Below are positions 12,959 to 46,812 of a stretch of 64,000 bases of DNA, one piece after another (position 1 is the first letter of the stretch; each line of letters begins with the position of its first letter). The position numbers and the translations under genes were made by a program. The notes under the pieces were generated by a model, which saw only the letters and a list, made by a program, of their open reading frames with translations, made no database searches and was not told where the DNA came from. Where the stretch lies: the NCBI RefSeq assembly GCF_056746865.1, contig NZ_CM163382.1. The stretch is one strand, 5' to 3'.

Positions 12959-14617
12959 ATGATTCTTGAGCGCGTTGAAATTGTGGGTTTTCGCGGTATC
13001 AACCGTTTGTCGTTGATGCTGGAACAAAACAACGTCCTGATTGGGGAGAACGCGTGGGGTAAATCCAGCTTGCTGGACGCCTTAACCCTGCTGCTATCGC
13101 CAGAATCAGATCTCTACCATTTTGAGCGCGACGATTTCTGGTTCCCGCCGGGAGATATCAACGGGCGAGAACATCATCTGCATATTATTTTGACCTTCCG
13201 CGAATCGCTGCCAGGCCGACATCGGGTTCGCCGCTATCGGCCGCTGGAAGCGTGCTGGACGCCATGCACTGATGGCTATCACCGTATTTTTTATCGTCTG
13301 GAAGGGGAGAGTGCGGAAGACGGCAGCGTGATGACACTGCGCAGTTTTCTCGATAAAGACGGACATCCGATTGATGTCGAGGATATTAACGACCAGGCAC
13401 GCCATCTGGTGCGTTTAATGCCGGTGCTGCGCTTGCGTGATGCCCGTTTTATGCGCCGTATTCGTAACGGCACGGTGCCAAATGTCCCTAATGTGGAAGT
13501 CACCGCGCGCCAGCTCGATTTCCTCGCCCGTGAGTTATCCTCACATCCGCAAAATCTCTCTGATGGGCAGATTCGTCAGGGACTTTCCGCAATGGTACAG
13601 CTGCTTGAGCATTATTTCTCTGAGCAGGGGGCCGGACAGGCGCGATATCGTTTAATGCGGCGGCGAGCCAGCAATGAGCAACGAAGCTGGCGCTATCTGG
13701 ATATCATCAACCGGATGATTGACCGACCTGGAGGGCGCTCGTATCGGGTTATTTTGCTCGGCCTGTTTGCTACTTTGTTGCAGGCAAAAGGCACATTGCG
13801 ACTGGATAAAGACGCCCGTCCATTGTTGCTGATCGAAGATCCAGAAACCCGTTTACACCCCATTATGCTTTCAGTTGCCTGGCATCTGTTGAATCTTCTG
13901 CCATTGCAGCGCATTGCCACCACCAACTCGGGTGAGTTGCTTTCGTTAACGCCGGTAGAGCATGTTTGCCGACTGGTACGTGAGTCCTCGCGCGTTGCCG
14001 CCTGGCGTCTGGGGCCGAGTGGTTTGAGTACCGAAGATAGCCGACGCATCTCTTTCCACATTCGTTTTAATCGTCCATCATCGCTGTTTGCACGCTGCTG
14101 GCTGCTGGTGGAAGGGGAAACGGAAACCTGGGTTATCAATGAACTGGCGCGTCAGTGCGGACATCATTTTGATGCTGAAGGGATCAAGGTCATTGAGTTT
14201 GCCCAGTCCGGGCTAAAGCCACTGGTTAAATTTGCCCGGCGAATGGGGATTGAATGGCATGTACTGGTCGATGGCGATGAAGCAGGGAAGAAATATGCCG
14301 CTACGGTACGCAGCCTGTTGAATAACGATCGGGAAGCCGAACGAGAACATTTAACGGCGTTACCGGCGCTGGATATGGAACATTTTATGTATCGCCAGGG
14401 ATTTTCCGATGTGTTCCACCGCGTGGCGCAAATCCCGGAAAATGTACCGATGAATCTGCGCAAAATTATCTCGAAAGCGATCCATCGCTCTTCCAAACCC
14501 GATCTTGCCATTGAAGTGGCAATGGAGGCAGGACGTCGTGGTGTGGATTCCGTACCGACGCTGCTGAAAAAAATGTTCTCACGCGTGCTGTGGCTGGCGC
14601 GCGGTCGCGCGGATTAA
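12959..14617 (+). CDS. ybjD: OLD-family ATP-dependent endonuclease YbjD (AAA ATPase N-terminus, Toprim-like C-terminus)
   Basis: 552-aa ORF MILERVEIVGFRGINRLSLMLEQNNVLIGENAWGKSS (Walker A GENAWGKSS); recognised as YbjD; overlaps the ybjX stop by 4 bp. Confidence 0.85.
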   Translation: MILERVEIVGFRGINRLSLMLEQNNVLIGENAWGKSSLLDALTLLLSPESDLYHFERDDFWFPPGDINGREHHLHIILTFRESLPGRHRVRRYRPLEACWTPCTDGYHRIFYRLEGESAEDGSVMTLRSFLDKDGHPIDVEDINDQARHLVRLMPVLRLRDARFMRRIRNGTVPNVPNVEVTARQLDFLARELSSHPQNLSDGQIRQGLSAMVQLLEHYFSEQGAGQARYRLMRRRASNEQRSWRYLDIINRMIDRPGGRSYRVILLGLFATLLQAKGTLRLDKDARPLLLIEDPETRLHPIMLSVAWHLLNLLPLQRIATTNSGELLSLTPVEHVCRLVRESSRVAAWRLGPSGLSTEDSRRISFHIRFNRPSSLFARCWLLVEGETETWVINELARQCGHHFDAEGIKVIEFAQSGLKPLVKFARRMGIEWHVLVDGDEAGKKYAATVRSLLNNDREAEREHLTALPALDMEHFMYRQGFSDVFHRVAQIPENVPMNLRKIISKAIHRSSKPDLAIEVAMEAGRRGVDSVPTLLKKMFSRVLWLARGRAD

Positions 14618-19748: not shown

Positions 19749-22025
19749 ATGCTCAATCAAGAACTGGAACTCAGTTTAAATATGGCTTTCGCCAGAGCGC
19801 GCGAGCACCGTCATGAGTTTATGACCGTCGAGCACTTGTTACTGGCGCTGCTCAGTAACCCATCTGCCCGGGAGGCGCTGGAAGCGTGTTCTGTGGATTT
19901 GGTTGCGCTCCGTCAGGAACTGGAAGCCTTTATTGAACAAACCACACCCGTTCTGCCTGCCAGTGAAGAGGAGCGCGACACACAGCCGACGCTGAGTTTT
20001 CAGCGTGTACTGCAACGTGCGGTCTTCCATGTCCAGTCCTCCGGTCGCAATGAGGTTACCGGTGCAAACGTTCTGGTCGCTATTTTTAGCGAACAGGAGT
20101 CGCAGGCGGCATATCTGTTGCGTAAACATGAAGTCAGCCGTCTCGATGTGGTGAACTTTATCTCTCATGGCACGCGTAAAGACGAGCCGACACAGTCTTC
20201 TGATCCTGGCAGCCAGCCAAACAGCGAAGAACAAGCTGGTGGGGAGGAACGTATGGAGAATTTCACGACGAACCTGAATCAGCTTGCGCGCGTGGGAGGA
20301 ATCGACCCACTGATTGGTCGTGAGAAGGAGCTGGAGCGTGCTATTCAGGTTCTCTGCCGTCGCCGTAAAAACAACCCGCTGCTGGTGGGGGAATCTGGTG
20401 TCGGTAAAACCGCGATTGCGGAAGGTCTTGCCTGGCGAATTGTTCAGGGCGATGTGCCGGAAGTGATGGCTGACTGTACGATTTACTCTCTCGATATCGG
20501 TTCTCTGTTAGCGGGCACAAAATATCGCGGCGACTTTGAAAAACGTTTTAAAGCGTTGCTCAAGCAGCTGGAGCAGGATACTAACAGCATCCTGTTTATT
20601 GATGAGATCCACACCATTATCGGTGCGGGTGCAGCCTCTGGTGGCCAGGTCGATGCGGCTAACCTGATCAAACCGCTGCTCTCCAGCGGTAAAATTCGCG
20701 TAATTGGTTCGACAACCTATCAGGAGTTCAGCAACATTTTCGAGAAAGACCGTGCTCTGGCGCGTCGCTTCCAGAAAATTGATATTACTGAACCGTCGAT
20801 CGAAGAAACTGTTCAAATCATCAATGGCCTGAAACCGAAGTATGAAGCGCACCACGACGTGCGTTATACCGCAAAAGCGGTGCGTGCAGCGGTAGAGCTG
20901 GCGGTGAAATACATTAACGATCGTCATCTGCCGGATAAAGCCATTGACGTTATCGACGAAGCGGGCGCTCGCGCACGCCTGATGCCGGTAAGCAAACGCA
21001 AGAAAACCGTTAATGTGGCGGATATTGAGTCCGTGGTGGCCCGTATTGCGCGCATTCCAGAGAAGAGTGTTTCGCAGAGTGACCGCGATACCCTGAAAAA
21101 CCTCGGCGATCGCCTGAAAATGCTGGTCTTCGGTCAGGATAAAGCCATTGAGGCGCTGACTGAAGCCATTAAGATGGCGCGTGCAGGTTTAGGTCACGAA
21201 CATAAACCGGTCGGTTCGTTCCTGTTTGCAGGCCCTACCGGGGTCGGGAAAACAGAGGTGACGGTACAGCTTTCGAAAGCTTTGGGCATTGAGCTTCTGC
21301 GCTTTGATATGTCCGAGTATATGGAACGCCATACCGTCAGCCGTCTGATTGGTGCGCCTCCGGGATACGTTGGTTTTGATCAGGGCGGTTTGCTGACTGA
21401 TGCGGTCATCAAGCATCCACATGCGGTGCTGCTGCTGGACGAAATCGAGAAAGCGCACCCGGACGTGTTCAATATTCTGTTGCAGGTGATGGACAACGGT
21501 ACGCTGACCGATAACAACGGACGCAAAGCGGACTTCCGTAACGTGGTATTGGTGATGACCACCAACGCTGGGGTACGAGAAACTGAGCGTAAATCGATTG
21601 GTCTTATCCACCAGGACAACAGTACCGATGCGATGGAAGAGATCAAGAAGATCTTTACGCCGGAGTTTCGTAACCGTCTCGACAACATTATCTGGTTCGA
21701 TCATCTCTCCACCGACGTGATCCATCAGGTAGTGGATAAATTCATCGTCGAGTTGCAGGTTCAGTTGGATCAGAAAGGTGTTTCTCTGGAAGTGAGCCAG
21801 GAAGCGCGTAACTGGCTGGCCGAGAAAGGTTACGACCGGGCAATGGGCGCACGTCCGATGGCGCGTGTCATCCAGGACAACCTGAAAAAACCGCTCGCCA
21901 ACGAACTGTTGTTTGGTTCGCTGGTGGACGGCGGTCAGGTGACGGTTGCGCTGGATAAAGAGAAAAATGAGCTGACTTATGGATTCCAGAGTGCACAAAA
22001 GCACAAGGCGGAAGCAGCGCATTAA
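19749..22025 (+). CDS. clpA: ATP-dependent Clp protease ATP-binding subunit ClpA
   Basis: ORF 19734..22025; start at [10 protein letters not shown] gives 758 aa; two AAA+ modules (GESGVGKT and GPTGVGKT). Confidence 0.95.
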
Positions 22026-22050
22026 TCTGATTGTCAGGTAGGTTGGTGAA

Positions 22051-22086
22051 GTCCGTAATCTCGAAAGAGGTTACGGACTTTTTGTT
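22051..22086 (+). terminator. Putative rho-independent terminator of clpA
   Basis: Hairpin gtccgtaatctc-gaaa-gaggttacggac followed by tttttgtttg. Confidence 0.7.
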
Positions 22087-22139
22087 TGTAGGCTGGGGCG
22101 GTGAAAACCCTATTTTTGGAGGTGAAGGTAAGTTGTTGA

Positions 22140-22237
22140 TAATTAATGGTGCTGGAAGGTAAGAATAAAAAAGGGTGCCAGCAGGAAAATGAGATGATTT
22201 TGCTTTATTAACAACGAGCTAAACGTGTAGTATTTGA
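22140..22237 (+). promoter_or_regulatory. Putative AT-rich CRISPR leader
   Basis: AT-rich stretch directly upstream of the first repeat; the degenerate repeat is at the opposite end, consistent with leader-proximal polarity. Confidence 0.4.
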
Positions 22238-22445
22238 GTTCACTGCCGTACAGGCAGCTTAGAAATCGACGGGGTGCGGTAAAACCTTTGCGAACGCGTT
22301 CACTGCCGTACAGGCAGCTTAGAAAGCTGTATTCGGCAAATGAAGTGGATGTTGATGGTTCACTGCCGTACAGGCTGCTTAGAAATTCGTACTTAACGAA
22401 CTGTTGCTCCTCTGCTGGTTCACTGTCGAACAGGCAGATAAAATG
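22238..22445 (+). CRISPR. Type I-F (Ypest-type) CRISPR array: 4 repeats and 3 spacers, with no adjacent cas genes (orphan)
   Basis: 28-bp repeats GTTCACTGCCGTACAGGCAGCTTAGAAA at 22238-22265 and 22298-22325, a one-mismatch copy at 22358-22385 and a degenerate terminal repeat at 22418-22445; 32-bp spacers at 22266-22297, 22326-22357 and 22386-22417. Confidence 0.9.
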
Positions 22446-22844
22446 CGAAAAAAGCTCGTACTTTCGTACGCGCTTTTCTTTAAATATGACGGTGAGGGGG
22501 GGATTGACTCGCTTCGCTCGCCCTGCGGGCAGCCCACTCACTGTGTTCGTGGTCTGTCCAACTGGCTGCGCCAGTTGTCGAACCCCGGTCGGGGCTTCTC
22601 ATCCCCCCTGGAGTGCAATATGCGAAAAAAAAGCTCGCACTTTCGTACGAGCTCTTCTTTGAATATGGCGGTGAGGGGGGGATTGACTCGCTTCGCTCGC
22701 CCTGCGGGCAGCCCACTCACTGTGTTCGTGGTCTGTCCAACTGGCTGCGCCAGTTGTCGAACCCCGGTCGGGGCTTCTCATCCCCCTTGGAGTGCAATAT
22801 GCGAAAAAAAAGCTCGCACTTTCGTACGAGCTCTTCTTTGAATA
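22445..22844. repeat. Tandem direct repeats (~2.3 copies of a ~178-bp unit), each containing the serW terminator plus a ~17-nt copy of the tRNA-Ser 3' end
   Basis: Unit starts gcgaaaaaa(aa)gctcg at 22445, 22622 and 22801; copies 1 and 2 are near-identical over ~175 bp; each contains cggtgagggggggatt, which matches the 3' acceptor/T-arm of serW. Confidence 0.85.
22803..22838 (-). terminator. Putative rho-independent terminator of serW (a copy of this element is present in each tandem unit)
   Basis: On the minus strand, hairpin agctcgtacg-aaag-tgcgagct followed by a T-run, immediately 3' of the tRNA. Confidence 0.65.
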
Positions 22845-22932
22845 TGGCGGTGAGGGGGGGATTCGAACCCCCGATACGTTGCCGTATACACACTTTCCAG
22901 GCGTGCTCCTTCAGCCACTCGGACACCTCACC
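22845..22932 (-). tRNA. serW: tRNA-Ser (anticodon GGA)
   Basis: Reverse complement reads GGTGAGGTGTCCGAGTGGCTGAAGGAGCACGCCTGGAAAGTGTGTATACGGCAACGTATCGGGGGTTCGAATCCCCCCCTCACCGCCA, with long variable arm and encoded CCA. Confidence 0.95.
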
Positions 22933-23185: not shown

Positions 23186-23407
<222 letters not shown>

Positions 23408-37799: not shown

Positions 37800-37820
37800 T
37801 ACCCAATTTTTCTGAATCTA

Positions 37821-37846
37821 AAAAGCGCCTGCGGGCGCTTTTTTTG
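37821..37846 (+). terminator. Putative rho-independent terminator of serS
   Basis: Hairpin agcgcctgcgggcgct followed by ttttttt. Confidence 0.75.
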
Positions 37847-38037
37847 TCTCCCTTTGATACCGAACAATAATTACTCCTCACTTACACGTAATACTACTTT
37901 CGAGTGAAAATCTACCTATCTCTTTGATTTTCAAATTATTCGATGTATACAAGCCTATATAGCGACCTGCTATAGAAATAATTACACAATACGGTTTGTT
38001 ACTGGAATCAATCGTGAGCAAGCTTGAGTGAGCCATT

Positions 38038-46690: not shown

Positions 46691-46812
46691 TGCGGTGTTT
46701 CTCCAGATGTGGCCCATCTGAGGCCGTGTTGGTGCGCAGCTCGAAGGCTACGTCGAGTCTGTTTTGGCAGTCACCTTAAAGTATAGATAGCTGACAAAAA
46801 AGGCTCTCGTGC

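Follow-up and report, generated by a model that had tools for sequence, protein, structure and literature searches.

The DNA analysed here is a stretch of 64,000 nucleotides from E. coli (hereafter the window), in which cspD, clpS and clpA are followed by a terminator, a leader, a short CRISPR array, two 179-bp units, serW, infA, aat and cydCD. The remainder keeps the gene order of strain K-12 through pflB, serC, aroA, rpsA and msbA. Positions 1-46692 are identical to strain Yu5, save that the Yu5 array holds one additional repeat-spacer unit carrying a second copy of spacer S1. Past pflA (position 46692 onwards in the window, 14751 onwards in the fetched Yu5 locus), Yu5 carries a P2-like prophage with integrase, Cox, portal and terminase genes and many frameshifted genes, and the window has pflB and focA in K-12 order at this point instead. 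Identity to Yu5 up to pflA without the prophage means that the window derives from a close relative of Yu5. A full-length copy of the enterobacterial sRNA STnc130 (RF02084, 140 bits) lies farther downstream, at 37813-37947 on the minus strand.

The features of the locus, from clpA to infA, are the following:

19749..22025, plus strand: clpA, the upstream core gene bounding the locus (Yu5 RefSeq annotation; open reading frame)
22048..22081, plus strand: intrinsic terminator of clpA, a hairpin followed by a T-run (terminator scan; inverted repeat)
22082..22237, plus strand: A/T-rich leader of the array, a homologue of the CRISPR4.1 leader found in cas-positive strains
22238..22265, plus strand: repeat 1, canonical type I-F, with the Cas6f hairpin (fold of -8.6 kcal/mol)
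22266..22297, plus strand: spacer S1, leader-proximal, target cas3f; 1,801 E. coli genomes have a match
22298..22325, plus strand: repeat 2, canonical (repeat search, Rfam)
22326..22357, plus strand: spacer S2, target cas1f; 32/32 in Rb-50 with 5'-CC
22358..22385, plus strand: repeat 3, with substitution A19T, disrupting the U7-A19 pair of the stem beside the Cas6f cleavage site
22386..22417, plus strand: spacer S3, target cas3f on the strand opposite to that of S1; 32/32 in B7A, M10 and SZQ1
22418..22445, plus strand: degenerate terminal repeat with 7 mismatches, its hairpin retained via a G-U pair (-5.9 kcal/mol)
22457..22470, both strands: terminator-like bidirectional hairpin (terminator scan matches on both strands)
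22845..22932, minus strand: serW, tRNA-Ser(GGA), the downstream landmark (ARAGORN, Rfam tRNA, S88 annotation)
23186..23404, minus strand: infA, the downstream core gene (open reading frame list, annotation)

The array spans 22238-22445 on the plus strand and consists of four 28-nt direct repeats of type I-F, starting at 22238, 22298, 22358 and 22418 with a spacing of exactly 60 nt, and of three unique 32-nt spacers (S1, S2 and S3). A preliminary description made from the letters alone had quoted these same repeats and spacers, together with a terminal repeat degenerate at seven positions, and it was accurate on both counts. Repeats 1 and 2 read GTTCACTGCCGTACAGGCAGCTTAGAAA, repeat 3 departs from this canonical form by the single substitution A19T (GGCAG to GGCTG), and the terminal repeat 4 deviates at 7 of 28 positions. 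A19T does not appear in the preliminary description. Allowing up to three mismatches, the repeat occurs three times in the window and not once in 100 dinucleotide-preserving shuffles. Its assignment to type I-F, likewise proposed earlier, is borne out by 28/28 identity to all non-terminal repeats of strain S88, which flank a genuine I-F cas operon, and by matches to the Rfam family CRISPR-DR4 (RF01317) on the plus strand. Repeats 1, 2 and 3 score 50.1, 50.1 and 40 bits for this family, and the terminal repeat, at 24 bits, falls below the gathering score of 35 bits. The strand of these matches, the A/T-rich leader upstream and the distal position of the degenerate repeat together set the plus orientation of the array.

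When folded, repeats 1, 2 and 4 form a hairpin of the Cas6f type with a 5-bp stem and a 5-nt loop (-8.6 kcal/mol for the canonical repeats and -5.9 kcal/mol for the terminal one). Repeat 3 reaches only -4.5 kcal/mol, as against -8.6 for the canonical sequence, and keeps a stem of only 3 bp. A19 is directly contacted by Cas6f (Csy4), and its substitution may lower the processing and maturation of the S2 and S3 crRNAs; the S1 crRNA is expected to be processed best because both of its flanking repeats are canonical. A19T is common to all three arrays of the S1-S2-S3 type examined (window, CB209 and Yu5) and is therefore a fixed feature of this haplotype. As modelled, the stem-breaking change hints at some decay.

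An open reading frame of 132 codons runs antisense through leader and array (22143-22541, minus strand), and the PGAP annotation places a 'hypothetical protein' over the array in both CB209 (WP_012602745.1) and Yu5 (WP_077698801.1). Such calls would suit a structure that is no CRISPR at all, only a chance tandem repeat or a portion of a minus-strand coding gene. This can be dismissed with near certainty: RF01317 is matched above its gathering score with an exact 60-nt period, the repeat is the same as repeats adjacent to cas genes, and the spacers, as set out below, copy cas gene sequence. The frame itself was considered as a real gene and rejected for its lengthening by 60 nt per added unit. 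It grows from 399 nt to 459 nt in Yu5, by exactly one extra repeat-spacer unit, so it is an artefact of reading through the array and almost certainly a spurious gene call.

Repeat 1 begins 212 nt after the clpA stop codon at 22025, a distance kept in 11 of the 11 strains compared, and the array ends 400 nt before serW. These values agree with the earlier placement of clpA about 210 bp upstream and of serW (22845-22932) and infA (23186-23404) within 1 kb. The terminator at 22048-22081 is predicted to part clpA transcription from that of the array. Together with this terminator, the interval 22026-22237 shares 92% identity with the CRISPR4.1 leader of S88. Relative to the allele of K-12, RM10466 and B7A it carries 25 differences over 212 positions (about 12%), mostly within 22086-22137, which is far higher than typical E. 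coli core divergence. A megablast survey recovered leader plus array at 95% identity or more in only about 400 of 5,421 genomes. A simple sigma-70 consensus scan of the plus strand of the leader returned no promoter match, and a putative leader promoter is inferred from the literature. On the distal side, the hairpin at 22457-22470 is the predicted meeting point of transcription from the array (plus strand) and from serW/RtT (minus strand). The 253-nt gap between serW and infA holds no CRISPR4.2 array, nor any repeat at up to nine mismatches.

Directly 3' of the array lies a 179-bp tandem repeat (22448-22863; 2.3 copies, 97% identical). Each unit carries a copy of the serW terminator hairpin and repeats 18 nt from the 3' end of serW (GGTGAGGGGGGGATT...); a segment of about 120 nt per unit resembles Rfam RtT (RF00391) on the minus strand, with scores of 43.6 and 41.6 bits against a threshold of 45. 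The units are missing in K-12 and RM10466, and in some strains RefSeq annotates 'RtT sRNA' there. In CB209, whose array is identical to that of the window, the first unit is succeeded by a gene for a tyrosine integrase; the units may therefore be remnants of att sites left by serW-integrating elements.

Arrays at this site have received more than one name. The array 3' of clpA is CRISPR3 in Touchon & Rocha (2010; PMC2886076), who reserve the name 'CRISPR4' for the serW-infA array, and CRISPR4.1-2 in papers from the Mojica laboratory (PMC3903273). Searching the 64-kb window by tblastn with six I-F Cas proteins of S88 gave no significant homologue of Cas1f, Cas3f, Csy1-3 or Cas6f; the only matches at the locus are stretches of 11-12 amino acids encoded by the spacers themselves. 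The cas-free stretch thus extends 22 kb upstream and 41 kb downstream of the array, all within the window, as expected from the preliminary description, which had placed no I-F cas genes next to it. A cas-less I-F array 3' of clpA is found in most E. coli. In S88, by comparison, a complete operon (cas1f, cas3f, csy1, csy2, csy3 and cas6f) with two flanking arrays sits between clpA and serW. The same interval holds the I-F operon in all seven cas-positive loci fetched and inspected (S88, B7A, M10, 8178, SZQ1, NC101 and Rb-50), where it lies between array and serW; this upholds the earlier view of the clpA-infA interval as the I-F site.

Whether the spacers match I-F cas genes had been left as an idea in the preliminary description. 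In a local scan of the S88 locus all three do so with the correct PAM: S1 and S3 match cas3f on opposite strands and S2 matches cas1f, each with one mismatch and with CC immediately 5' in the sense of the spacer. This 5'-CC is present at all three protospacers in every allele examined, and it is the same motif as the GG on the leader-proximal side that defines the E. coli I-F PAM (PMC3506596). The three protospacers all fall within a 4.2-kb cas1f-cas3f segment and show no more than one mismatch in at least one allele group; such matches would be expected by chance at a rate of about 1e-13 per spacer. By allele, the matches are distributed as follows:

S1: 32/32 in B7A, SZQ1 and Rb-50; 31/32, mismatch at position 12, in S88, 8178 and NC101; 31/32, mismatch at position 16, in M10
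S2: 32/32 in Rb-50; 31/32, mismatch at position 10, in the B2 type; 29/32 in the B7A type (B7A, M10 and SZQ1)
S3: 32/32 in B7A, M10 and SZQ1; 31/32, mismatch at position 31, in the B2 type and Rb-50

The seed of an I-F spacer comprises positions 1-5, 7 and 8, and the mismatches of the B2-type allele (position 12 in S1, 10 in S2 and 31 in S3) all lie outside it. Every sixth position of the spacer stays unpaired, and position 12 is among these. Every I-F allele group sampled is matched by all three spacers with intact PAM and seed, and each group except the B2 type is matched perfectly by one or two of them; the two-spacer cases are S1 and S3 in B7A and SZQ1, and S1 and S2 in Rb-50. The single spacer of K-12 also matches cas1f with a CC PAM, with 2-3 mismatches that include seed position 4.

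That the spacers copy cas3f and cas1f sequence next to an I-F PAM indicates that they were acquired from I-F cas DNA by an I-F adaptation machinery. The earlier suggestion to compare them with phage and plasmid databases yielded no other target. No phage target of S1-S3 was found by blastn (word size 11) among 50,697 phage records. In PLSDB eight records match the spacers, none of them with a plasmid-borne cas target: seven carry the array itself, mostly in chromosome-sized or fragment records filed as plasmids, and the eighth is a 23/24-nt chance match in Aminobacter. An exact-pattern scan for S2, the three positions known to vary being written as N, covered 100,044 species-representative genomes and returned no match that would point to a cross-species origin; the perfect S2 target was located in E. 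coli Rb-50.

For orphan arrays in other bacteria, use in trans or gene regulation has been proposed (PMC8616872). Applied here, the array would serve another resident system, such as the I-E Cascade, or its transcripts would regulate host genes. The analysis of the window yielded no point in support of either, and both are very improbable. Use by a I-E system conflicts with the specificity of its processing enzyme: I-E Cas6e recognises a different, 29-nt repeat. Regulation of host genes fits poorly with spacers that have no further copy in the window, even at up to eight mismatches, and whose remaining matches in E. coli, once arrays and cas genes are set aside, are a weak chance match of 25/29 (S2) and a chance match of 18 nt (S1).

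The distribution of array and targets was followed in 5,426 complete E. coli genomes. I-F cas1-cas3 is present in 241 of these, always on the chromosome, and forms two groups, one at least 98.7% identical to S88 and the other about 94%. S1 finds a match in 1,801 genomes, perfect in 1,589 and at 31/32 in 212. The perfect matches sampled were all unannotated or 'hypothetical', pointing to the array, and the sampled matches at 31/32 all lay within cas3f. For S2 the corresponding counts are 212 genomes at 100%, 201 at 31/32 and 39 at 29/32. The two sub-perfect bins add up to 240 of the 241 cas-positive genomes, and the perfect bin comprises arrays and at least the cas1f of Rb-50. By subtraction, S2 and S3 belong to the arrays of about 170-210 genomes (3-4%) and S1 to those of about 1,560-1,590.

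S3 is informative on co-occurrence. It was found in 414 genomes at 414 places, with a maximum of one place per genome, and an S3-bearing array and the cas3f protospacer therefore never share a complete genome; if arrays were matched as expected, Yu5 and CB209, both with the S1-S2-S3 spacers, should be among the 414. The lack of co-occurrence is partly trivial, because array and operon share one locus and I-F carriage follows phylogeny. Carriage of I-F systems is mostly a trait of phylogroup B2 (PMC3506596, PMC2886076, PMC12736100). Arrays of cas-positive loci contained no anti-cas spacers in the six loci scanned.

Comparison of spacer content between strains, another step proposed at the outset, shows several array variants at the site. 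The S1-S2-S3 set of the window recurs in CB209, S1 is duplicated in Yu5 (S1-S1-S2-S3), S1 stands alone in RM10466 and many other strains, and K-12 holds one different cas1 spacer. The end of the terminal repeat (...CAGATAAAATG) and its junction to the serW-type terminator CGAAAAAA are common to all of these variants (window, CB209, Yu5, K-12 and RM10466), and the terminal repeat of the window has three internal differences from that of K-12 and RM10466. Terminal repeats of cas-less arrays have been compared before (Table S5 of PMC2886076).

Taken together, the locus is very likely an orphan, cas-less type I-F CRISPR of E. coli, all of whose spacers are directed against cas genes and would block the establishment of I-F systems. 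The anti-CRISPR hypothesis and the phylogenetic arguments for it come from Touchon & Rocha (2010; PMC2886076). According to two reviews from the Mojica laboratory (PMC5972030, PMC8616872), Almendros et al. (2016; Nat Microbiol 1:16081) found orphan arrays of other strains to be constitutively expressed, to interfere with plasmids that bear the I-F cas set and to support primed acquisition. A survey from 2025 (PMC12736100) reports that spacers of clpA-proximal arrays match cas1f, cas3f and csy3. To the anatomy, spacer origin, cas absence and lack of co-occurrence observed here, functional steps can be added by inference and from this literature. The leader would drive constitutive transcription of an array that stays inert without Cas proteins. 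On entry of an I-F operon, the incoming Cas6f would cleave each repeat of the resident transcript after G20 and so release 60-nt crRNAs. Csy1-3 and Cas6f would then load these resident crRNAs and locate, within cas1 and cas3 of the arriving operon, the protospacers flanked by CC. Cas2-3 from the same operon would degrade its own coding DNA, primed adaptation would reinforce the response, and the I-F system would fail to establish.

The same cas matches and PAMs are accounted for equally well by reading the array as a neutral fossil of past autoimmunity: an ancestral I-F system would have taken up spacers from its own cas genes, self-targeting would have favoured loss of the operon, and the array would persist without present function (Diez-Villasenor 2010, as quoted in PMC2886076). 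One ancient deletion would fit the degenerate terminal repeat and the junction common to orphan arrays; A19T in repeat 3 and the duplication of S1 in Yu5 resemble drift or recombination rather than maintenance. Against persistence without function stands the uniformity of S1: 1,589 genomes match it exactly and 212 with one mismatch, the latter number being close to the 241 cas-positive genomes. As the one-mismatch matches sampled all lie in cas3f, S1 varies in very few array copies or in none. It also stays the same between leader haplotypes about 12% diverged. Three arguments for selection made by Touchon & Rocha (PMC2886076) oppose a purely neutral array, as does the interference by native orphan arrays once Cas proteins are supplied, which the reviews describe (PMC5972030, PMC8616872). 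A functionless fossil is thus unlikely. The fossil reading may describe how the array arose, and an anti-cas function is compatible with such an origin.

A stronger claim than anti-cas function is that the three-spacer haplotype is actively maintained as a multi-allele 'vaccine' against I-F. From the sequences at hand this is possible rather than probable. The coverage of all sampled allele groups described above belongs to this proposal, as does the comparison of repeat 1 and S1 between the window and RM10466, which are identical at 60 of 60 positions despite divergent leader haplotypes. Such identity fits a constraint on the spacer; recombination is the other possible cause. An S1 unchanged between leaders about 12% apart would point to purifying selection acting without any Cas protein.

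A separate observation concerns the cas-positive loci themselves. In S88 and the five other loci compared, six in all, a repeat-like unit, GTAAACTGCCGTACAGGCAGC, lies on the minus strand just after cas3f, in the cas3f-csy1 intergenic region. In S88 (13963-14291 of the fetched locus) it agrees with the I-F repeat at 20 of the latter's first 22 positions. In this strain, the only locus read in detail, a more degenerate unit (...CAGCTTAGAAA) and a spacer of about 25 nt precede it; the sole partial PAM-proximal match of this spacer in the 24-kb locus (10/12, CC-flanked) falls in the same region upstream of csy1. Mini-arrays that autoregulate cas expression (CreR, or crRNA-like RNAs) are a known class, and by analogy the cas3f-csy1 unit resembles them.

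The array of the window is real, was rightly interpreted in the preliminary description, and is already published as an anti-cas array. The present analysis adds only a table of matches for each allele, the absence of co-occurrence among 5,426 genomes and minor details of the haplotype; the window is one more confirmed instance and holds no new biology. Orphan anti-cas arrays are a textbook case of a CRISPR array turned against CRISPR-Cas, and they help explain the rarity of I-F systems in E. coli (241 of 5,426 genomes). In annotation, they should be masked as CRISPR, since RefSeq calls spurious 'hypothetical proteins' over them. Resident anti-cas arrays also need consideration when I-F tools are brought into strains that carry them.

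Compared with the complete I-F loci of E. coli (S88, LF82, NC101, B7A, M10 and Rb-50), the window array has the same repeat, 32-nt spacers and site, and a homologous leader 212 nt from clpA. It differs by the absence of the six cas genes and of CRISPR4.2 between serW and infA; the complete loci have longer arrays (5-36 repeats across those fetched) and, in the six scanned, no anti-cas spacers. With self-targeting spacers that cause autoimmunity it shares spacers from the pan-genome of its own species and a functional PAM. The target here, however, is the cognate cas operon, which is probably absent from the carrier genome, so that no autoimmunity is expected. The orphan array of K-12 has one different cas1 spacer and a leader about 12% apart, whereas the window has three spacers and A19T in repeat 3. 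With the E. coli orphan anti-cas I-F array as a known system, the window shares the locus from clpA/clpS to tRNA-Ser, the repeat, the conserved leader, the type of degenerate terminal repeat, the very short length, the lack of cas genes and spacers that match I-F cas1 and cas3 with the I-F PAM, and it differs from that system in no essential respect.
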